23,753 nt of DNA from a virus: UHGV virus genome UHGV-0105281; one strand, written 5' to 3'. Made by a program: the position numbers and the translations under genes. Positions 2,470 to 23,703 of this stretch are shown piece after piece. How positions within the stretch are numbered: position 1 is the first letter of the stretch; each line of letters starts with the position of its first letter. The notes under the pieces were generated by a model. It saw only the letters and a program-made list of their open reading frames with translations. It did not search any database and had not been told where the DNA came from.

Positions 2470-2545
2470 GCTGGTTTAGCTCCAATGGTAGAGCAGTCGC
2501 CTTGTAAGCGAATGGGTAGCGGTTCAAGTCCGTTAACCAGCACCA
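2470..2545 (+). tRNA. tRNA-Thr(UGU)
   Basis: Hand-folded cloverleaf: acceptor gctggtt/aaccagc, D-arm gctc-caatggta-gagc, anticodon loop cTTGTAa, T-arm agcgg-ttcaagt-ccgtt, encoded CCA. Confidence 0.75.
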
Positions 2546-5077: not shown

Positions 5078-5449
5078 ATGAACGACCAGCAAATCGAAAA
5101 AGAAATCGTTGAGAAAGGCAAAACGGCACCGCGAATCACCCCGCAGCACATCGAAGACGTGATTAAAAGCGAGCATTGCTTCACCGCATACGATGGTATT
5201 GGCGGAGAGGGCGCTATGGCGACATACAAATCCGCGCTTGATTTAACCGAAAGTCAGGAAGCATTAAAGCTTCTTACATTCTGCGTCCTGGTGCTGCGCA
5301 ACGGCTTCACCGTCACCGGCGAAAGTGCCTGCGCCAGCCCGGAAAACTTCGACCCGGAGATCGGTCGCAAGATCGCCCGCGAAAATGCGGTGAATAAAAT
5401 CTGGATGCTGGAAGGTGACTTGCTGAAGCAGAAGTTAAGCGAACAGTAG
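5078..5449 (+). CDS. Gp49-like protein (N4 Gp49 / Sf6 gene 66 family)
   Basis: 123 aa; motif ...TFCVLVLRNGFTVTGESACASPENFDPEIGRKIARENAVNKIW is characteristic of this family as I recall it. Confidence 0.6.
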   Translation: MNDQQIEKEIVEKGKTAPRITPQHIEDVIKSEHCFTAYDGIGGEGAMATYKSALDLTESQEALKLLTFCVLVLRNGFTVTGESACASPENFDPEIGRKIARENAVNKIWMLEGDLLKQKLSEQ

Positions 5450-5552
5450 TTATTACAAAAGCCATTCCCTACAGAGTGGCTTTGATAATGGCTTATACCC
5501 TACACGGGATAACTTAACTGATATCCCTTTTAACGGATAAACGGAGCCAACA

Positions 5553-7793: not shown

Positions 7794-9994
7794 TGGCTGA
7801 TGATAGAAAGATGACTGACTGGCATCGCAAGGTGCTGTGCAACTTTGATAATGCCTGGTCAGCAACGCAGGATATGCGTGAGCAGATTATTGAGGCTCAA
7901 CGTTTCGTCCGGGTATCCGGCGCACAGTGGGAAGGCAGCACAAACGCTGGTTACTCATTTGATGAAGGCAGGTTTGAGCATTACCCGCGCTTTGAACTGA
8001 ATAAGATTGCCCGTGAATGTGATCGCATCATTGGCGAGTATCGACAGAATCGCATCAGCGTTAAATTCAGGCCGAAGGACGATAAGGCATCGGAAGCGTT
8101 AGCCGAAAAGATGAACGGCAAATTCCGCGCTGACTATCAGGAAACATCCGGTGGCGAAGCGTGTGATAACGCATTTGATGATGCTGTAACGGGCGGATTC
8201 GGTTGTTTCCGCATGTGTGCCGATTACGAAGATGAAATGGATCCGAGTAACGAGCAACGCCGTATAAGCCTTCTTCCTGTTTACGACCCAGCGACATGCG
8301 TCTTCTTCGATCAGGACAGCAAGCAATATGACCGCTCTGATGCTATGTGGGCTATGGAAATGTTCTCCATGACGCCTAAAGCGTTCGAAGCTGAATACCC
8401 TGATTCCATCGCTGCAAGTCTTTCTCGTGATGGCACTGGCACTCAATATGACTGGTCAACTCCTGATGCTATCTATGTTGGTCGCTACTATGAAGTCCGC
8501 ATAGAGAAGGTGAAGCTCACGGCGTGGCGCAACCCTGTTAGCGGAGAAACGGCAATCTATGATGAAGAGCAAATCAAAGATATTGTCGACGAGCTAACCG
8601 ATGGTGCATTCGAACTGATCGGTGAGCGAACGGTGAAGAAACGCCGCGTTTATTGCGGTCTTCTGTCTGGCGCTGAATGGCTGGAAGAACCGAAGCGCAT
8701 TCCGGGCGAACATATTCCTCTCATCCCGGTATATGGGCGTCGTTCATTTGTTGATAATCAGGAGCGAATCGAAGGCCACGCAGCAAAAGCGATGGATGCA
8801 CAGCGTCTTGAGAACCTGATGGTTTCCATGATTGCAGATAACGCTACTCAGGCTGGCGGTGATGGCATTCCTGTAGTTGATGTTGACATGATTCCTGGTC
8901 CTCTCGCCACTCATTGGGCGGAGCGCAACAAAAATCGCCCGGCGTTCCTGCCGATGGTCAGTCTGAAAAACAAAAACGGAGATATTACTGCGCAGGCTCA
9001 GGTCAGCAGTTATACGCCTCCGACACAAATGCCTCCAGCTCTTGCCGGGCTATTGCAGTACACCGGAACGGCTATTCAGCAAATTACAGGTGCGTCGCAG
9101 CTTGAGAACATGCCGAGCAACGTCGCCACCGATACCGTTGATAGCATCTTTAACCGGATGGATACGCAGTCCTATATCTACATGGACAACATGGCTAAAT
9201 CCATGCGTCGCGCTGGCGTTGTGTGGCTTTCTATGGCGCGTGAGGTCTATGGCAGTGATACGCCGATGCGTATCGTTAATGAGGACGGCAGCGATGACGT
9301 GGCGCTGATGACTGGTGAAGTGGTTGACCGTCAGACAGGGCAGGTTATCGCGCTTAATGACCTTTCGCAGGGCAACTATGAAGTGACTGTCGATGTCGGT
9401 CAGTCGTTCGCTACTCGCCGTGATGCAACGGTTAAGTCGTTACTTTCCATGCTGGCACTTATCCCACCAGGAACGCAGAAGCACGACCTTGTATCGTCGA
9501 TGATTCTCGACAATATGGACGGCGAAGGGATGGACGACCTTAAAGAATACAACCGCAATCAGTTGCTTCTGTCTGGAGTTATCAAGCCGAGAACACCAGA
9601 AGAACAGAAGATGGTTGAGCAGGCGAAACAACAACAGGCCAGTCAGCCAGATCCGGCTATGGTTGCTGCGCAAGGTCAGCTTCTTGCTGGTCAGGCTGAA
9701 TTGCAGAAAGCGCAGAACGAACAGGCAGCCATTCAGGTTAAAGCATTCCAGGCACAGACTGATGCTCAGGTTGCAGCGGCAAATGTTGTGAAAATACTCG
9801 CATCTGCCGATAGTCAGCAGAAATCTGATATCCGCGAGGCTCTGAAACTGCTCGGACAGTTCCAGCAACAGCAAGGAGACAATGCCCGTGCTGATGCAGA
9901 GCTTGTCCTGAAAAGTCAGGCACAGGGTCATGCGCAGCGCATGGACATCAGCAGCATCCTGCAAAAATCAACTCAGCAACAACCACAGCAGTAA
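7793..9994 (+). CDS. Portal protein (P22 gp1-like)
   Basis: About 733 aa; conserved KRRRVY...GEHIPLIPVYG and a long helical Gln-rich C-terminal region as in P22 portal; ATG 7793 follows a GGAG RBS. The ORF track starts at a TTG at 7778. Confidence 0.9.
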   Translation: MADDRKMTDWHRKVLCNFDNAWSATQDMREQIIEAQRFVRVSGAQWEGSTNAGYSFDEGRFEHYPRFELNKIARECDRIIGEYRQNRISVKFRPKDDKASEALAEKMNGKFRADYQETSGGEACDNAFDDAVTGGFGCFRMCADYEDEMDPSNEQRRISLLPVYDPATCVFFDQDSKQYDRSDAMWAMEMFSMTPKAFEAEYPDSIAASLSRDGTGTQYDWSTPDAIYVGRYYEVRIEKVKLTAWRNPVSGETAIYDEEQIKDIVDELTDGAFELIGERTVKKRRVYCGLLSGAEWLEEPKRIPGEHIPLIPVYGRRSFVDNQERIEGHAAKAMDAQRLENLMVSMIADNATQAGGDGIPVVDVDMIPGPLATHWAERNKNRPAFLPMVSLKNKNGDITAQAQVSSYTPPTQMPPALAGLLQYTGTAIQQITGASQLENMPSNVATDTVDSIFNRMDTQSYIYMDNMAKSMRRAGVVWLSMAREVYGSDTPMRIVNEDGSDDVALMTGEVVDRQTGQVIALNDLSQGNYEVTVDVGQSFATRRDATVKSLLSMLALIPPGTQKHDLVSSMILDNMDGEGMDDLKEYNRNQLLLSGVIKPRTPEEQKMVEQAKQQQASQPDPAMVAAQGQLLAGQAELQKAQNEQAAIQVKAFQAQTDAQVAAANVVKILASADSQQKSDIREALKLLGQFQQQQGDNARADAELVLKSQAQGHAQRMDISSILQKSTQQQPQQ

Positions 9995-16219: not shown

Positions 16220-17599
16220 ATGGCTACGTGGCAACAGGGTATTAATTCTGGTGGTTTTCTGGCTGGAATTGGTGCGCAAAATGAGAATGCGCCAAAGGCA
16301 AGCGACATTAACGCAACGCTTGGTCTGATTCGCGAAAACAATGAACTGGCTCGATCAGGTGCAAATAACGTTGCTCTGACAGGTCTTCGTGGTCTGGCTG
16401 GAGTTGCTGATATTTATAAGCAGCAGCAACAGCAGGAGCGTAAAGCGGCATTCCAGAAAGGTTATGCGGATGCTTATGCGTCCGGCGACAGGGAGCAGAT
16501 GCGTAATCTTATTACAGCATTCCCCGAAGAGTTTGAGGAAGTCCGTAAAGGCATGGGGTATGTCGATGACGCCCAGCGGGATGATTTTGGCAATCTGGCG
16601 CTTAAGGCTCAGGTCGCTTCGTCGCTTGGTCCGGGTGCATTTGGCAGGTTCATGATGGATAACGAAAATGAGATGCGTCGTTTAGGTATCCCTCCAGAAA
16701 CTATTGCGGAAATGCAGGTTAATGACCCGCAGGGCTTCCAGCACTTCACAGGTAATCTGGCACTATTTTCTCTCGGTCATGAGAAGTACTTCGATATCAA
16801 AGATCGAATGGAGGGGCGTCGACTTGAAGGAGAAAGAAATCAGTTAACTGCTCGTGGTCAGGATATCACGATGCGCGGTCAGGATTTATCTGCTGCTACT
16901 GCACGGAGAGGTCAGGATTTAGCGATGCAGAGAGCATCAATGAAAGGGGCTGTTGGTAATAATGAGCGCACAGTTCAACTAGCAGACGGAAGAACTGTAA
17001 CCGTAGGCGGGAAGCTTCATGGTGCAGGTGCTAACGCGTTCTACGAAGGAATAGACAATGAGGGGAACATGGTTCGCGTTCCTGCTGGCTCTATTGCTGC
17101 TCCGGCCACGTCGGCAGCAAGCGCGCAGAATTACGCAATGAAGAAAGATCTTGATGCAATTTCTGGCGCATCAATTGACGATCTTGGCTTCATGACTGGC
17201 ATTACAGGCTCTTCAGGTTCTCCTGCTCTTGGTGCAGATATTCGTAGCCGTGCCTCTGGTGGTGATCAGAGGAAACTATACAACGCTGCACAGCGAATCC
17301 AAGGAAAGATGCAGAATCAGGGCATTGCAGCAGCCAGAGACATGGGGGCATCTGGTATCAACACCGTTGCAGAAGCAAAGATGTATTTTCAAGGTATGCC
17401 ACAGGTTGATTTCTCAAGCCCTGAAGCACTACAACAATCAATGCGCGACATTCAGCAATATACCGACAATTACAACCAGCAATATAACGTTAATGTCGGT
17501 AATGGCGGGAAGAAATCATCAAGGCAACAGCCAGCTACTCAGCAATCAGCAGGAGGTAGCTACACGTCAAAATCAGGCATTCAATTTACGGTGGAATGA
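16220..17599 (+). CDS. Ejection protein, gp20-like
   Basis: 459 aa in the gp20 position. Confidence 0.8.
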
Positions 17600-19425
17600 T
17601 GAAAGTAACTGCAAACGGTAAGACATTTACCTTTCCTGATGGTACGAGCACCGAAGATATTGGCACCGCCATTGATGAGTATTTTGCTGGTCAGGCTGTT
17701 CAGCAACAAACAGTTAATCAGGCCAATAATGCACCAACACAGGAAGAACCATCATTGATGCAACAAGCTGGCGATTGGCTCACTGGTGGTCAAAGTGCAG
17801 GGCAAATTGCAGAACAGGCTGGTCGTGGTCTGGTAAACATACCATTTGACGTATTGCAGGGTGGCGCAAGTCTGATTAATGCAATCAGCCAGGGGCTTGG
17901 TGGTCACAAGGTTTTGGACGATGTCTATCGTCCAGTAGATCGACCAACAGACCCTTATGCGCAAGCTGGAGAAACAATTGGCGGGTATTTAGTTCCAGGA
18001 GTTGGAACTGCAGGAAGCATGGCTATTGGATCACTGGCAGAAGCCGCAAACCAGAAAGGCGATTTCGCGCAAAATGCAGCCATAAACGCCGGAGTTAACC
18101 TTGCTGCTCAGGGTGTTCTTTCCGCAGCAGCAAAGGGAATAGGGCGTGGAATAACGGCTATAAAAGGCGATATCGCGCCAGAAGTAGCGAAAAAAATTGC
18201 CACCTCAGAATCGATGGGCGTGACACCAATGACATCTGATGTTATCCCGCCGAAAAATGCTTTCACTCGCGGCCTAACTCAGGATGCCGAGGGGGCTTTG
18301 CTCGGGACAGGCTCAAAGCGAGCTGAGCAGTATGCAAAAAGAAGTCAGCTAGTTAAAAAACAGCTTGAGAAATATGGTGAATATAGCCCATCAGTTGTTG
18401 TTGACGATCTGTATGGTTCTCTGAAGTCAAGGAAGGATTCGGCCGGAAGCGTTATTGAAGACATTACAGCCAAAATGGGAGACACACCAGTTGACACATC
18501 AAAATCTATTAAGGTTATCGACAACGTACTTACCAGAGCTAATAGGCTTGGGAAAGTGGCAAATAAGGATTTGATTCGCGGGTTATCCGATTTGCGAGAA
18601 GAACTTGCTAAACCAGATATAGATTTTGGTCTATTGAGAGAGTTGCGGTCAGCCTTGAGGGAAAGTATTCAGGGAGATGCCATGGTTTTTCCTAATAGCG
18701 CGAAAGCCGCAACTGATACCGTGGAGAGGGCAATGGGGGCAGATTTGAGGAATAACGCAGCGCGGTATTTGGGGGCTGGAGAGGCCGCCAGATACGTCAA
18801 GGCAAACTCTGACTACTCTAACGTCTTCAATAAGGTTCTTAATAAAAGGATTGCGAATAATCTCAACAAAGCTAAAAAAGAGTTTACTCCAGAGCTAATA
18901 AACAGTGTTGTATTCAGCAGAAAACCATCAGATATTAAGAGGATATGGCCAGCTCTTAGTGAAGATGGAAAGAACGCTATGCGTGCTGCTTATATCAGCA
19001 AGATTGCAGAAAAAGCAGGAGACTCGCCAACAAAATTTCTTACCGAGTTAAATAAGTTGAAGTCGCAATCTGACGGTCAGATCTATAACACGATATTCAG
19101 TGGGAGACACATGAAAGAGCTTGATGCTCTTCATGAAGTTCTACAGCAAACAGCAAGGTCGGACGCCGCAAATGTAGTAACACAGACAGGACAATCGCAA
19201 GCCAACAGGATAAGGACGATTGGCGCAACTGCGACTCTTGGCGTATCAATGGGGCTTGAGGCTGGTTTCGGTGCAATGATGCGCTTGTATGAGTCAAAAG
19301 CAGCAAGGAATGCTCTCTTACGTTTGGCAAACACCAAAGCAGGAACGCCAGCCTATGAAAGAGCATTAAGTAACGCTGCAAATGCCATCAGACCGCTGCT
19401 TGCCACTGAGGCAACACAGCAGTGA
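17596..19425 (+). CDS. Ejection protein, gp16-like
   Basis: 609 aa, same length as P22 gp16; ATGA overlap with gp20. Confidence 0.8.
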
Positions 19426-19691: not shown

Positions 19692-20333
19692 TCAAAGCAA
19701 CGGGATTTCAAGGTAAACTGCGGTTGCCAAAATACTAACATCTTCATTTCTAACAAGAATATTAGGATACATTGGGTTTAGGGATACTAGGTTTGTCTCT
19801 ATTTCACCAATGTAAACCTGTTTGAAGCTCAATATTTGCTCTTTATCCAATGATGCTATTACATAATCTTTGCTTTTAGCTTTTACTAGAGGGCTGAACG
19901 TGACAACCGATCCTCTGGGAAAGCTAATACCTGAACTTGTAGTCATAGCTTCACCTTCAATAGTCAATGCAAATGCAGAGTCACCAACATTGTATATTGC
20001 CGGATGAAATCTAGACGATGAATGTTCACCTGTGTTTAGGTAATGCATAACTTCATCTAGTTTGAGGATTGGTATTTGCTTTACCAGAACGTCAGGCATG
20101 ACGTTTTTTGTTCCCGGACCCTGACCTTCACCTAGAGCTAACCACTCAGCTGTAGTACCTAATGCGTTGGCTAATGCCTGCAATACCCGAAGCCGTGGTT
20201 TAGCCTCACCACCCTCGTATGCAGCTATTTGACGTTGAACAACACCAGCTAATTTTGACAACTGCGCCTGCGTCATACCCCTGGACTGTCTTGCCAGAGA
20301 TACTCTTGATGGGAATTGATCGTCAAAATTCAT
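19692..20333 (-). CDS. CI/LexA-like repressor (N-terminal HTH, C-terminal S24 peptidase fold) with Ser-to-Ala at the nucleophile position
   Basis: N-terminal HTH (GMTQAQLSKLAGVVQRQIAAYEGG); C-terminal S24-like region in which FALTIEGEAM aligns with LexA FLLRVSGMSM, placing Ala where the catalytic Ser sits (codon GCT confirmed in DNA); the Lys of the dyad is retained (SFKQV). Confidence 0.8.
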   Translation of the reverse strand: MNFDDQFPSRVSLARQSRGMTQAQLSKLAGVVQRQIAAYEGGEAKPRLRVLQALANALGTTAEWLALGEGQGPGTKNVMPDVLVKQIPILKLDEVMHYLNTGEHSSSRFHPAIYNVGDSAFALTIEGEAMTTSSGISFPRGSVVTFSPLVKAKSKDYVIASLDKEQILSFKQVYIGEIETNLVSLNPMYPNILVRNEDVSILATAVYLEIPLL

Positions 20334-20354
20334 TAGTTCACCATAAAAAATTCA

Positions 20355-20383
20355 TTGACTCATGCTGAGTGTGAGTGAATAAT
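20355..20383 (+). promoter_or_regulatory. Rightward promoter (TTGACT, 17-bp spacer, AATAAT) with overlapping operator-like palindrome and TGAGT repeats
   Basis: Promoter hexamers read directly; palindrome ACTCA-TGC-TGAGT at 20358-20370 and tandem TGAGTG at 20366-20377. Confidence 0.4.
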
Positions 20384-20432
20384 CAAACTACAAAAAGTGA
20401 GATTATGAGTTTTTTAAAAACAGGAGTGCATA

Positions 20433-20606
20433 ATGACTGAAAAGATATCTTCCATCAAGCCGCGTCAGGTTCGTTTTACAGAAAAGGTTGATTCACATAT
20501 CCGCGAATCAGCAAAAAGATGCCATAGGTCAATTCAGGCAGAGATAGCTTATCGAATGGAGTTATTGATGAAACTTGAGGCAAAGGGCGATGTTGTCATC
20601 CAATAA
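20433..20606 (+). CDS. Arc/Mnt-family ribbon-helix-helix regulator (57 aa)
   Basis: Not in the ORF track (under 60 aa). AGGAG RBS 6 nt upstream; PRQVRFTEKVDSHIRESAKRCHRSIQAEIAYRMELL parallels Arc PQFNLRWPREVLDLVRKVAEENGRSVNSEIYQRVMESF. Confidence 0.6.
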   Translation: MTEKISSIKPRQVRFTEKVDSHIRESAKRCHRSIQAEIAYRMELLMKLEAKGDVVIQ

Positions 20607-20679
20607 AAATAGTGAAGCCCGGCAGTGCGCGAACACAAACCGGGCCTCTATGTCAGTAACCGTATGCAAGGAAACTAAC

Positions 20680-21306
20680 ATGAATATTGTAGCAAAATCA
20701 GATTACAACTTCCACGGAGTTGAGTTGGTGCCCACCCGTGATATGCATGGTGTTTGGTTTACATCATCTAATATTGCATCTGCACTTAAATACGCAAATA
20801 GTCGTGCAGTAACAATGATTTATAACAAGTATAGCGATGAGTTTAGCGCCGGAATGACTCAGGTACTCGAAGTGAGTACCTCAGGAAATTATCGCAAAAA
20901 AGTGCGAGTTTTCTCACTACGCGGTGCCCACCTAATCGCGATGTTTGCTCGCACTCCGGTAGCCAAAGAGTTCCGCCGCTGGGTGCTGGATATTTTGGAT
21001 CGGCAGGCAGAATGCTCACCGATTGCAAAACAGTTTACTGACGAAGAACTGGTTAATCTCTGCTACTTACAATTGTGGATGGAGAAGAGTCAACAAATGT
21101 GCAAACACATCTACCCAGGAATGAAGCAAATTGGTTCTGAGCTTTCAGGAAGGATTTACGATATTGCATATGAGACTCGCTACATGTCAGAAGAAACCAA
21201 GAAATCACTTCTTCGTGAAATGAAGAATCTTGATACCAACAATTTTGTCGTAAAGAACGCTCAGCCAATGCTGGCAAAACTTCGCGGCGAGGAATGGATT
21301 CATTGA
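20680..21306 (+). CDS. Bro-N domain antirepressor-like protein
   Basis: 208 aa from ATG 20680 (AAGGA RBS); Bro-N-like N-terminus (FHGVELVPTRDMHGVWFTSSNIASALKY...SLRGAHLIAMFARTPVAKEFRRWVLDIL). The ORF-track start at 20575 overlaps the RHH gene. Confidence 0.7.
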   Translation: MNIVAKSDYNFHGVELVPTRDMHGVWFTSSNIASALKYANSRAVTMIYNKYSDEFSAGMTQVLEVSTSGNYRKKVRVFSLRGAHLIAMFARTPVAKEFRRWVLDILDRQAECSPIAKQFTDEELVNLCYLQLWMEKSQQMCKHIYPGMKQIGSELSGRIYDIAYETRYMSEETKKSLLREMKNLDTNNFVVKNAQPMLAKLRGEEWIH

Positions 21307-21321
21307 TTGGTGCGCCGGACT

Positions 21322-21400
21322 GCGCAAAAAGAAAACCGCCAGTGTGCTGCTGGCGGCCTATGTCACACCCTTACTACCACATAAGGAATGCCTAATGACT
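21322..21400 (-). ncRNA. Predicted sar-like antisense sRNA covering the RBS and start codon of the downstream Ant-like gene
   Basis: Minus-strand promoter inside the start of the Ant-like gene (-35 GTGACA at 21430-21435, 17-bp spacer, -10 TACATT at 21407-21412) and a minus-strand intrinsic terminator (hairpin 21336-21356 followed by a T-run at 21322-21335). Confidence 0.3.
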
Positions 21401-22123
21401 TTTAAGAATGTAGCAAACATCGGATCCGTTGTCACGGATAAAACCATTGATAGCCAGTACCTGTTAGAGATGGTCAATCATGCTCGTAGACAGTGCGGGG
21501 AAAAAGAAGTCCGAAATAACGACTTTATTGCACGCATTAAGGATGAACTTGAAGGTGAGCACTACGAAATTTTCGTAGTTCAAAAATCAAACAAGACAAC
21601 TTCTGAAAAAGTTGTTATGTCAATTAAGCAAGCCCTTCGAGTGGCTGCTCGTGAATCTAAAGCTGTTCGCCGCTCACTTGTAGACCAACTTGAAAGTATG
21701 CAAGAAGCGCACATTAAAAGCGGTAAATCGTCGAGTGGACTTGTTGAGTATCGCCAGGCGCGAACATTGAAAATGACGGTTGAAGCTGTTACCAATCTGT
21801 TCGATTTGATGCCAAATCTTGCGCCGGAAGCAAAGCAGACTGCGGCAGCAAGCATAATCAACCCGATCGTTGGTTTTAATGCAATACCTCTTCCAGCAAT
21901 AGAAGAGCATTACTACTCAGCAGGGGAGGTTGCAGAGCAGCTTGGAGTAACGGCCAACAAGATTGGTCGCATTGCTAACGCAAACAACCTCAAAACTGAG
22001 CAGTACGGGAAGTTCTTCCTGGATAAATCTGCACATTCCAGCAAACAGGTGGAAGCATTCCGCTACAATGCGGAAGGTGTTAAAGCTCTACAACACCTGA
22101 TTCATGGGAGTAATGTTGCATAA
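21395..22123 (+). CDS. Ant-like antirepressor (Rha/AntA-like N-terminus with KilA-C-like C-terminus)
   Basis: 242 aa from ATG 21395 (AAGGA RBS); N-terminal region resembles the pRha pattern and the C-terminal region resembles KilA-C (YYSAGEVAEQLGVTANKIGRIANANNLKTEQYGKFF). Confidence 0.55.
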   Translation: MTFKNVANIGSVVTDKTIDSQYLLEMVNHARRQCGEKEVRNNDFIARIKDELEGEHYEIFVVQKSNKTTSEKVVMSIKQALRVAARESKAVRRSLVDQLESMQEAHIKSGKSSSGLVEYRQARTLKMTVEAVTNLFDLMPNLAPEAKQTAAASIINPIVGFNAIPLPAIEEHYYSAGEVAEQLGVTANKIGRIANANNLKTEQYGKFFLDKSAHSSKQVEAFRYNAEGVKALQHLIHGSNVA

Positions 22124-22344
22124 TGGCAAAGAAAAAATATGGCATTATGCCGCCAAGAATCAAAGGAAGAGCCAGGGTAAAAGGCGATGCTGGGAGGTAT
22201 CACATTCTTGGAGTTCTGTGGCATGAGAGAGCTTTAATTTTAAGTAGACCTCATGGGTACATTGAAAAGGTATCTATAGATAGAGTAGAGATTCTTCCCC
22301 TTACACCTGAAGAAGAAGAAACGTACGGACTTTTTGATAACTAA
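22123..22344 (+). CDS. Hypothetical small basic protein (73 aa)
   Basis: TAATG-coupled to the upstream gene and followed by a strong terminator. Confidence 0.5.
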   Translation: MAKKKYGIMPPRIKGRARVKGDAGRYHILGVLWHERALILSRPHGYIEKVSIDRVEILPLTPEEEETYGLFDN

Positions 22345-22400: not shown

Positions 22401-22937
22401 TCAAACAACCCACCAGTTTGCCTGATTGGATACCAGCCTTGCAGTTTTTATGGAATTAATTATGCCATGCTCAAGAGCCTTGTTAGCATCCAAAATGGTC
22501 GAGTCTGCTATCAGGGATGCCCACCTAATATGGGTTCCGATGTCGATATTGAACGTCTCAACGAAGCGATCAAGATCGTTATCGAGGCATTTCCCGTACT
22601 CTCTCAATCTGGCATGGTCGGCGGCTGGGGAGGCAAAGCACCATAATAGAGGATGTAACAGGAATCTTGATAATGGGTTTGCGAAACGTTCTGAGCCAGC
22701 CAGGAAAACGATATTAGCTATGGATTCAACATTGCTTATGTTGTGAGTTCTAACGGTAACAGGGAGTGACTTAAGAAAGTTATACGCAGTAAAGCCAGCG
22801 GCTGTTTCCCCTCCCTGACTTGATATATGGATATTTAATTCAGTTGCGCCTTGAGATAATGCGGTGAGACAGTGGTTCTGAAGTTGCCCAACAGTGGCGG
22901 TGTTAACGGGGCATAAGAAATGAATTGTGTGCAGCAT
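22401..22937 (-). CDS. ClpP-fold (peptidase S14-like) serine protease, translationally coupled to mnt
   Basis: 178 aa; aligns by eye with E. coli ClpP over the catalytic core, with Ser (VESIANIVFLAG), His (FLLHPLL) and Asp (ADSTIL) all present; its ATG overlaps the mnt stop (TAATG). Confidence 0.7.
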   Translation of the reverse strand: MLHTIHFLCPVNTATVGQLQNHCLTALSQGATELNIHISSQGGETAAGFTAYNFLKSLPVTVRTHNISNVESIANIVFLAGSERFANPLSRFLLHPLLWCFASPAADHARLREYGKCLDNDLDRFVETFNIDIGTHIRWASLIADSTILDANKALEHGIINSIKTARLVSNQANWWVV

Positions 22938-23191
22938 TATTTATCATCCTTGCCATAAATCTTTTTAAGTGTCTCAAACACAACAGTCTTGAACTGCTCT
23001 GCTTGCTGATCAGCCAAGCGTTCAGCTTCGTCTCGATAGCCTGCAATCGGTGATGGTTCAGATAACGCCTTCTGTACGATCTGAACTAGTTCAGAATTGA
23101 TAGACCGACCATTCATTTTTGCCCTTTGGTCTAACTTTGCTTTTAACTCTGCTGGAAGGCGCAACTTAAATTGTGGGTCTTCTCTGGACAT
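22937..23191 (-). CDS. mnt: Mnt repressor (ribbon-helix-helix)
   Basis: 84 aa; MSREDPQFKLRLPAELKAKLDQRAKMNGRSINSELVQIVQKALSEPSPIAGYRDEAERLADQQ closely matches my recollection of P22 Mnt. Confidence 0.85.
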   Translation of the reverse strand: MSREDPQFKLRLPAELKAKLDQRAKMNGRSINSELVQIVQKALSEPSPIAGYRDEAERLADQQAEQFKTVVFETLKKIYGKDDK

Positions 23192-23210
23192 TTTATCACC
23201 ATGTTTTTTC

Positions 23211-23262
23211 TTGACAGTCTATAACGGTGATAGTACATTCTCAATTGAACCACGGTGGTTCA
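23211..23262 (+). promoter_or_regulatory. Pant-like promoter with candidate Arc operator in the spacer and Mnt-type 17-bp palindromic operator at the transcript start
   Basis: TTGACA (23211-23216), 17-bp spacer containing CTAT-aacggtg-ATAG, -10 TACATT (23234-23239), palindrome TGAACCAC-G-GTGGTTCA at 23246-23262. Confidence 0.6.
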
Positions 23263-23278
23263 TTGATTGGGAGAGGGT

Positions 23279-23437
23279 ATGCAAGGTGCAAGAAAAATGC
23301 CGCAGTTTAATTTGCGGATGCCTAAAGAAGTATTGGATTTGGTGCGCAAGGTAGCCAAAGAGAATGAGCGATCTGTTAACTCTGAGATTTACAAGCGAGT
23401 ATTGGACAGCCTGAAGAGGGAGGGGGTAATGGTATGA
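23279..23437 (+). CDS. arc: Arc repressor (ribbon-helix-helix)
   Basis: 52 aa, not in the ORF track; MQGARKMPQFNLRMPKEVLDLVRKVAKENERSVNSEIYKRVLDSLKREG closely matches my recollection of P22 Arc; GGGAGAGGG RBS. Confidence 0.85.
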   Translation: MQGARKMPQFNLRMPKEVLDLVRKVAKENERSVNSEIYKRVLDSLKREGVMV

Positions 23438-23703
23438 GGGTGTCATTGCTTGATCGTTCTTTACAATTTTTGTCTGGCGCAATCATTGTGGTTTGCTTGC
23501 TTGTGATTTTTACAGCGCTAATCAATATGTATCAATCAGGGGAACGATTGACAAAGACGATAGAGGAAAAGAAATCAGTCTCAAATTACGAAGTATCACA
23601 TGCACATAACGATTTAGTAGAAAGCCTTGACCGTATTAACAAGAGGCTTGACGAGACAAATATGCTACTTAAGCAAATTCAAAATGAAGTGGAAAAACGT
23701 TGA
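23434..23703 (+). CDS. Membrane-anchored coiled-coil protein (89 aa) in the position ant occupies in P22
   Basis: ATGA overlap with the arc stop; N-terminal TM helix (FLSGAIIVVCLLVIFTALINMY) and a charged helical C-terminus. Confidence 0.55.
   Translation: MRVSLLDRSLQFLSGAIIVVCLLVIFTALINMYQSGERLTKTIEEKKSVSNYEVSHAHNDLVESLDRINKRLDETNMLLKQIQNEVEKR

Follow-up and report, generated by a model that had tools for sequence, protein, structure and literature searches.

Mnt and Arc, the two repressors of the immI (secondary immunity) region of phage P22, are textbook models of beta-sheet DNA recognition and, to our knowledge, almost all work on their specificity has used laboratory mutants of a single phage. 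Judging by the title of their 1989 paper, Knight and Sauer reportedly found that a short N-terminal region sets the specificity of both Arc and Mnt, and Silbaq et al. 2002 refer to residue 6 of Mnt in their title as the "master residue". Published work shows that substitutions of a single residue, residue 6 of Mnt, change which bases are preferred chiefly at two neighbouring positions of the operator (PMC1184061), numbered 16 and 17 where they were studied (PMC1131891), that Gln9, Asn11 and Arg13 of Arc read six adjacent base pairs per half-site (PMC12645479) and that the N-terminal arm of Arc orders on DNA and matters for binding (PMC3325190). The region that carries these genes, between gene 16 and the tailspike gene, has been described as the "ant moron" (PMC2629481). 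The present analysis concerns a 23,753-nucleotide stretch of viral DNA, UHGV-0105281 (hereafter the window, whose positions are used as coordinates throughout), and more precisely positions 23192-23278, which form the entire gap between two divergent open reading frames (ORFs), mnt (22937-23191, minus strand) and arc (23279-23437, plus strand). We estimate at about 0.85 the probability that this gap is the Pant/Pmnt region of the immI of a P22-like Escherichia coli prophage and that it carries a second repressor/operator specificity class compared to P22. Homology, architecture, covariation, conservation and mosaic boundaries are all directly observed and are presented below.

Comparison of the window with the annotated sequences of P22 and Salmonella phage epsilon34 gave an alignment that is free of gaps from the -35 hexamer through the Mnt operator (window: TTGACA GTCTATAACGGTGATAG TACATT CTCAAT TGAACCACGGTGGTTCA; P22: TTGACA TGATAGAAGCACTCTAC TATATT CTCAAT AGGTCCACGGTGGACCT). 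As in P22 immI, mnt and arc are divergent, and the -35 hexamer, the 17-bp length of the spacer, the CTCAAT linker and the symmetry centres of the operators are the same. The Mnt-operator slot is occupied by the 17-bp palindrome TGAACCACGGTGGTTCA (23246-23262), whose 8+1+8 arms, TGAACCAC-G-GTGGTTCA, are perfect and which lies at the predicted start of the rightward transcript with the same CCACGGTGG core as in P22. The equivalent of Pant, which would drive arc-orf89-ant, extends from 23211 to 23239 on the plus strand (TTGACA at 23211-23216, TACATT at 23234-23239); it matches the consensus at 10 of 12 positions and is the top-scoring promoter of the scanned region. It is overlapped on the minus strand by the equivalent of Pmnt (23216-23244), with TTGAGA as -35 (23244-23239), a 17-bp spacer and TAGACT as -10 (23221-23216), which is a consensus match only (9/12) at the same positions as the Pmnt annotated in the P22 entry X01916. 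The 21-bp Arc-operator slot AGTCTATAACGGTGATAGTAC (23216-23236), whose coordinates were transferred from the annotated P22 Oarc, contains within the Pant spacer the palindrome CTATaACgGTgATAG (23219-23233, core CTATAACGGTGATAG), which has the same symmetry centre as P22 Oarc. The alignment with P22 Pant, Omnt and Oarc had been proposed as a check in an earlier reading made from the sequence only; it upholds the 17-bp palindrome and the inverted repeat between TTGACA and TACATT that this sequence-only reading had pointed out, their likeness to the P22 mnt operator in length, central core and location at the transcript start, and the placement of the spacer repeat where the Arc operator lies in P22. 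It should be emphasized that the 17-mer is not statistically unusual as a bare palindrome (three perfect 8-1-8 palindromes in the window compared to 0.42 expected in first-order Markov simulations), and its significance therefore comes from its position and homology rather than from palindromy alone. No second copy of the Mnt operator was found elsewhere in the window when up to three mismatches were allowed, and the search for additional Arc sites, which also covered the surroundings of the second antirepressor module described below, returned only chance matches with three mismatches.

Within this common architecture, the DNA identity with P22 is only about 70%, and the differences affect both the operators and the segments of the repressors expected to read them. 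The arms of the Mnt operator are TGAA/TTCA in the window and AGGT/ACCT in P22, so that the half-site has A at position 4 (T in P22) and A at position 3 (G in P22). The 84-aa Mnt of the window, which consists of a ribbon-helix-helix (RHH) domain (Pfam PF03869, 7e-19) and a C-terminal Repressor_Mnt tetramerisation domain (PF11423, 3e-12), is 59% identical to P22 Mnt. It starts with MSREDPQFKLR, and its recognition beta-strand P5-Q6-F7-K8-L9-R10 (mature numbering; codons at 23159-23176, minus strand) corresponds to P-H-F-N-F-R in P22, replacing H6/N8/F9 by Q6/K8/L9. Thus, where the P22 homoimmune class associates AGGTCCAC/GTGGACCT with His6/Asn8, the window associates TGAACCAC/GTGGTTCA with Gln6/Lys8. 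The 52-aa Arc (PF03869, 1e-24) is 71% identical to P22 Arc and has an identical PQFNLR strand, whereas its arm is MQGARKM instead of MKGMSKM (A4/R5 instead of M4/S5). The Arc slot differs from the P22 Arc operator ATGATAGAAGCACTCTACTAT and its TAGA boxes at 12 of 21 positions, matching it at only 9/21, and its palindrome, centred on AC.GT, is closer to perfect. In addition, the -10 hexamer differs (TACATT instead of TATATT), and the window has an additional gene, orf89, between arc and the sar/ant junction, as well as a ClpP-like gene accompanying mnt. Epsilon34 and the other loci of P22 specificity have the same module in the same flanking gene context, but with the P22 operator sequences and a DPHFNFR Mnt.

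About 150 immI loci, some contigs being represented twice, were gathered in two ways, by an Mnt profile and by a pattern that fixed only the promoter frame and left both operators free. They fall mainly into two discrete classes. In class I, that of P22 (more than 100 sites), Mnt carries DPHFNFR and its operator is AGGTCCAC.GTGGACC[T/C], while Arc carries GMSK[M/N]PQFNLR and the Arc slot is ATGATAGAAGCACTCTACTAT. In class II, that of the window (34 sites), Mnt carries [D/Y]PQFKLR and its operator is TGAACCAC.GTGGTT[C/T][A/C] (GTGGTCCA in one locus), while Arc carries GARK[M/L]PQ[F/L]N[L/F]R, some members reading PQLN instead of PQFN, and the Arc slot is AG[TC/CA]TATAACGGTGATAGTAC. A DPHFNFR Mnt is always found with the arms AGGTCCAC.GTGGACCT and a DPQFKLR Mnt always with the arms TGAACCAC.GTGGTTCA; neither intermediates nor mismatched Mnt/operator pairs were found among these loci. 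Any of the four bases (G, C, T or A) can occupy the centre of the Mnt operator, in line with a dyad position that is not contacted. Comparison of the proteins shows that the class follows the recognition segment rather than the protein body. From residue 14 to its end, the window Mnt is 60-70% identical to class I Mnts, compared to 54% and 32% for the class II Mnts of loci L136 and L117, whereas its first 13 residues show the reverse pattern, being 85% identical to those of class II and 54% identical to those of class I. The same holds for Arc, the class tracking the N-terminal segment and not the body. Further classes were observed beside these two: locus L229 (site at about 8602-8655) associates a DEPKFTFR Mnt with GGTCAC.GTGACC, and a Pectobacterium-type class (L007, L083, L111, L144, L178, L217 and L221) associates a GASK Arc arm with the Arc site ATGATAGGAYGATGCTATTAT.

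The strongest evidence that a PQFKLR strand would read nRRACCAC, and that the palindrome of the window is probably the cognate site of the window Mnt, comes from a widespread family of repressors found outside immI. The Mnt profile also retrieved 20 loci (L009-L028) from Pseudomonas, Stutzerimonas, Stenotrophomonas, Nevskia and metagenome-assembled genomes, encoding proteins of about 100-120 aa that have an Arc domain (PF03869), start with MSR[E/D]DPQFKLR and have unrelated C-termini. Two or three 17-bp palindromes are located within 170 bp upstream of their genes, at about -80, -53 and -27, and in total 58 operator-like sites were found in 3.4 kb of upstream DNA compared to four in the remaining 57 kb. 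The 116 half-sites give the consensus nRRACCAC (palindrome nRRACCAC.GTGGTYYn), with G or A at position 2 (86 and 30, respectively), mostly G or A at position 3 (76 and 35), A at position 4 (115, with a single C and never T), C or T at position 5 (97 and 19) and CAC at positions 6-8. The window half-site TGAACCAC fits this matrix at every position and occurs exactly eight times among the 116, whereas the P22 half-site AGGTCCAC has at position 4 a T that is found in none of them (0/116). The window Mnt and its site thus share with this family the N-terminus S-R-[E/D]-D-P-Q-F-K-L-R, the A at position 4 and the CAC at positions 6-8. The contact residues of the Pseudomonas, Stutzerimonas and Stenotrophomonas proteins are identical to those of the window Mnt. 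However, these Arc-like repressors have their own C-terminus, lack a Repressor_Mnt domain, typically have three tandem sites about 27 bp apart, are not accompanied by arc, ant or sar and lie outside any P22-like late operon. Considered for themselves, the 20 loci (sites at about 1330-1500 of each locus) look like an undescribed family of autoregulated repressors with a definable operator.

The two classes also differ in a block with sharp limits. Sliding identity between the window and two class I E. coli prophages (L237 and L238), whose ClpP-like gene, Mnt C-terminal domain and Arc body are 90-100% identical to those of the window, is about 100% from 22401 to about 23040, falls to 53-63% at 23061-23297 and rises to about 90% from 23298 onward. 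The diverged block (approximately 23045-23297, its boundaries being approximate) includes the Mnt RHH domain, both promoters, both operators and arc codons 1-6, and it constitutes a recombination cassette of about 250 bp that carries the recognition segment of each repressor along with the operators. It is reminiscent of lambdoid immunity cassettes, in which repressor recognition segments and operators are likewise inherited as one mosaic block with sharp boundaries, but it is only about 250 bp long, concerns two RHH repressors instead of helix-turn-helix ones and includes only six codons on its arc side. Two loci mark recombination points: L005 (E. coli CH4794, 5341-5502) is a natural chimera with the class II arm MQGARKM on a P22-identical Arc body and a class II operator, and L238 (1238-1492) encodes a class I Mnt whose C-terminal half is that of the window Mnt. 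Within class II, the 52-bp core from TTGACA to GTGGTTCA is identical to that of the window at 49-52 of 52 positions among 18 distinct sequences, even where Mnt is only 39-58% and Arc only 42-48% identical (52/52 in L136; 51/52 in L117, L137 and L227). Sliding identity within the class delimits an island at 23203-23262 (87-100%), followed by 15 bp upstream of the arc ribosome-binding site at 27-53%, a pattern indicative of purifying selection on the core. The sequence-only reading had suggested a distinct operator specificity because the flanking half-site bases differ from those of P22; this suggestion is now supported by the association of operator and strand, by an independent RHH family, by core conservation within the class and by the published work on Mnt residue 6.

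The case of Arc is different, since its base-contacting residues Gln9, Asn11 and Arg13 are the same in class II as in P22 although 12 of the 21 positions of the slot differ. As the strand is unchanged, only the arm of Arc can account for the new spacer site, and the arc-side residues that travel with the operators are indeed those of the arm alone (Q/K2, A4 and R5 compared to K2, M4 and S5). In the alignment, the counterpart of Arc Arg5 is Mnt Arg2, both being located three residues ahead of the conserved proline. In every class that has an arginine at this place (Mnt of classes I and II, L229, the Pseudomonas family and class II Arc), AC.GT surrounds the operator centre, whereas class I Arc and the Pectobacterium class have a serine there and lack AC.GT. 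The spacer palindrome is kept in all loci of the window class, and locus L008 (Candidatus Phlomobacter), which encodes a class II-type Arc, has in its Arc slot a perfect 7-1-7 palindrome, ATATCAC.GTGATAT, the only palindrome present in this locus. It is therefore plausible that class II Arc binds [A/C]TAT[C/A]AC.GTGATA[G/T], with a putative contribution of Arg5 at the centre. The contact residues of Mnt in L008 (R, Q, N and R) are also those of its Arc. This identity, combined with the single palindrome, would fit another explanation, in which Mnt, alone or along with Arc, binds the spacer palindrome owing to the ACGGTG centre that this palindrome has in common with the Mnt operator. When centred, the spacer site and Omnt are identical at 10 of 17 positions compared to 3 of 17 in P22, and the right half ACTATCAC has ATCAC in common with the PQFKLR-family half-site GGGATCAC. 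We nevertheless consider binding by Mnt unlikely, if conceivable for the right half: positions 2 and 3 of the PQFKLR half-sites are purines in 116/116 and 111/116 cases, whereas the spacer site has C and T; position 6 is C in 116/116, whereas the left half of the spacer site has A; and the site fills the exact slot of P22 Oarc, with the same symmetry centre, and is co-inherited with the arm codons of Arc.

In another reading, Arc, with its strand unchanged, would recognise TAGA-type hexamers that are flipped about the local dimer dyad (GATAGA...TCTACT in P22 and TCTATA...GATAGT in the window). The symmetry of Arc dimers and the contact of Arg13 with the G of TAGA (PMC12645479) make such a flip conceivable, and agreement of the window hexamers with the half-site consensus of P22 rises from 6 of 12 positions to 10 of 12 when they are flipped. 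However, this G is not kept in class II, being lost on the left in the CATA subtype and absent from both sides in L008, and the conserved feature is TAT-N-AC.GT-N-ATA rather than TAG, which leaves this reading a small chance in our view.

A more radical alternative is that the locus has P22-like specificity and is homoimmune, the differences in the operator arms resulting from neutral drift and the P22-type and window-type repressors cross-reacting. The central CCACGGTGG and the whole geometry are identical to those of P22, both promoter hexamers are kept and the strand residues of Arc are unchanged. Drift would hardly explain, however, that there are no intermediates among the immI loci, that the arms are invariant within each class while the proteins diverge down to about 40% identity and that the contact residues of Mnt change in step with the operator. 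Furthermore, the PQFKLR repressors outside immI, which have this strand independently, show the position-4 T of P22 in none of their 116 half-sites, and the literature assigns operator preference to residue 6 (PMC1184061). Homoimmunity to P22 is thus very unlikely. Finally, the arc transcript could form an RNA hairpin from the 17-bp palindrome in its 5′ leader, involved in stability or attenuation, so that the palindrome would not be a DNA operator, given its predicted 7-bp stem and 3-nt loop at the 5′ end and three arm changes relative to P22 that are compensatory on both arms. This is extremely unlikely, since shuffled sequences fold just as well (z = -0.32) and the P22 homologue of the site is annotated as bound by protein on experimental grounds. 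Moreover, the Pseudomonas family has three copies of this palindrome in promoter regions that are not transcribed, and the arm changes track protein residues.

Several points weigh against a second specificity class and temper our estimate. The split between classes I and II may stem from very few events, so that the covariation within immI would amount to an effective n of 1-2, and the Pseudomonas family is the main independent replicate of the Mnt/operator pairing. Binding of class II repressors to their operators is a prediction from sequence. The spacer palindrome is putatively assigned to Arc on the basis of position, conservation and co-inheritance with the arm, and the left half of this palindrome varies by subtype (TCTA or CATA) and overlaps the -10 of Pmnt. 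Lastly, the mapping of operator positions 16 and 17 is tentative: in the 21-bp numbering they would correspond to the A-C of GTGGACC, where the window has T-T.

If the locus does belong to a second specificity class, its working can be proposed by homology with P22; binding by Mnt and Arc, the assignment of residues to bases and heteroimmunity towards P22-type immI are what we infer from the data above. A tetramer of the cognate Mnt would bind TGAACCACGGTGGTTCA at the start of the rightward transcript, so that in a lysogen Mnt would shut off arc-orf89-ant and favour the overlapping leftward Pmnt. After infection, the cognate Arc would bind the spacer palindrome (core CTATAACGGTGATAG) and turn down both promoters, and the sar RNA would add an antisense control of ant. 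The Q6/K8/L9 strand of class II Mnt would read the half-site nRRACCAC, while class II Arc keeps its Q9/N11/R13 strand and has an altered arm (A4, R5), its putative site being now an Mnt-like palindrome with an AC.GT centre. A stronger version, which we put forward tentatively and at somewhat short of even odds, is that the block of about 250 bp is a portable cassette combining an Mnt RHH domain and an operator that come from, or are common to, the wider PQFKLR family with an Arc re-targeted purely via its arm, the change of Ser5 to Arg allowing it to read AC.GT. If true, nature would offer here an RHH protein whose arm encodes its operator specificity, together with a small natural recognition table: H/N for GGTCCAC, Q/K for RRACCAC, and Q/N with an arm arginine for [A/C]TAT[C/A]AC.

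All the components of P22 immI are present at this locus, i.e. mnt, arc, both promoters, the operators, sar and ant, and they occupy the location of the "ant moron". A DNA transfer protein of the gene 16 type (phrog_770) is encoded at 17596-19425, and the window corresponds to the late region of a P22-like phage. As in P22, sar and ant lie downstream of arc and the whole is located between the gene 16 homologue and the tailspike gene. The ribosome-binding site of arc, GGAGAGGG (23270-23277, plus strand), was read from the sequence and belongs to a stretch that is not conserved between loci. The additional gene orf89 (89 aa, phrog_27312; 23434-23703, plus strand), situated between arc and the sar/ant junction, overlaps the arc stop codon and is found at the same position in L231 and L236; its product has a predicted hydrophobic N-terminal segment. 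The sar antisense RNA (Rfam RF00262; 23698-23753, minus strand, terminator hairpin at 23733-23702), whose 5′ end is cut by the edge of the window, reaches 51.2 bits in this truncated form and 66.2 bits at full length in L032, for a gathering score of 43. Consequently, ant is not directly 3′ of arc, as orf89 and sar intervene, and it lies just beyond the end of the window: in L032, a contig that matches the window and extends further, an ant ORF of at least 308 codons starts shortly past this end and is similar to a gene of L231 that carries P22_AR_N. The same gene order is found in L231, L234 and L236, and a Head_binding tailspike gene follows ant in L231-L236. In assemblies encoding an identical Mnt, gene 16 is followed by an HTH-S24 repressor gene, RHH57, two antirepressor-like genes and a 73-aa ORF, then by the ClpP-like gene with mnt, arc, orf89, ant, the tailspike gene and ybhB-bioA, and the flanking chromosomal DNA matches E. 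coli with 100% identity.

The 178-aa ClpP-like ORF (PF00574; 22401-22937, minus strand) has counterparts with 100% identity in class I E. coli prophages. Its start codon overlaps the stop codon of mnt, so that in the lysogen both genes are probably transcribed together from Pmnt. NCBIfam has no specific family for the repressors considered here. Inside mnt itself, TCTGAACTAGTTCAGA (23080-23095) is a perfect 16-bp palindrome that has TGAAC/GTTCA in common with the operator arms, but it is probably a coding coincidence since it occurs only in near-identical relatives and encodes SELVQ. The same "ant moron" contains a second, differently controlled antirepressor module (19692-22344). It begins with a gene for a repressor with helix-turn-helix (HTH) and S24-peptidase domains, LexA/CI-like (19692-20333, minus strand), and a divergent promoter (20355-20383; TTGACT, 17-bp spacer, AATAAT) that carries the palindrome ACTCA-TGC-TGAGT (20358-20370). 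Downstream of this promoter are a 57-aa RHH-like ORF (20433-20606), a Bro-N/P22_AR_C antirepressor gene (20677-21306), a phrog_1726 antirepressor gene (21395-22123) and a 73-aa ORF. When ant is counted, although it lies past the window end, the prophage thus has three antirepressor-like genes under two regulatory systems. Two adjacent tRNA genes (2390-2461 and 2470-2542, plus strand; 55 and 61 bits with Rfam) were also detected in the early-right/late-left region.

The class II core appears to be rare in the finished sequences that were searched. It was found in none of 50,697 GenBank phage records, in no plasmid and in only 2 of 5,426 complete E. coli genomes. A broader mnt-arc query retrieved about 225 further E. 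coli genomes, and the four that were sampled all belong to class I. Nevertheless, a protein identical to the window Mnt is encoded in many draft assemblies (170 index blocks). A literature search for the operator strings returned only unrelated primer matches. The genome papers of epsilon34 and phage L describe variation in the gene content of the "ant moron" but no classes of operator specificity.

Overall, this locus adds a well-defined second allele, very probably of distinct specificity, to a very well-known system, the known mechanism of which is unchanged. The window locus, class II and the PQFKLR family would represent natural, selection-tested repressor/operator pairs that differ from P22 at residues 6 and 8 of Mnt, and the operator positions that differ in these natural pairs are presumably those re-targeted by changes of residue 6 in the laboratory. 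If the immI specificity is distinct, a phage of this class could express its antirepressor in a lysogen carrying a P22-type immI, and the reverse would also apply, which would be relevant to the cross-induction of prophages in E. coli. The interest of these elements would thus lie mainly in beta-sheet DNA recognition and in antirepressor cross-talk between prophages.

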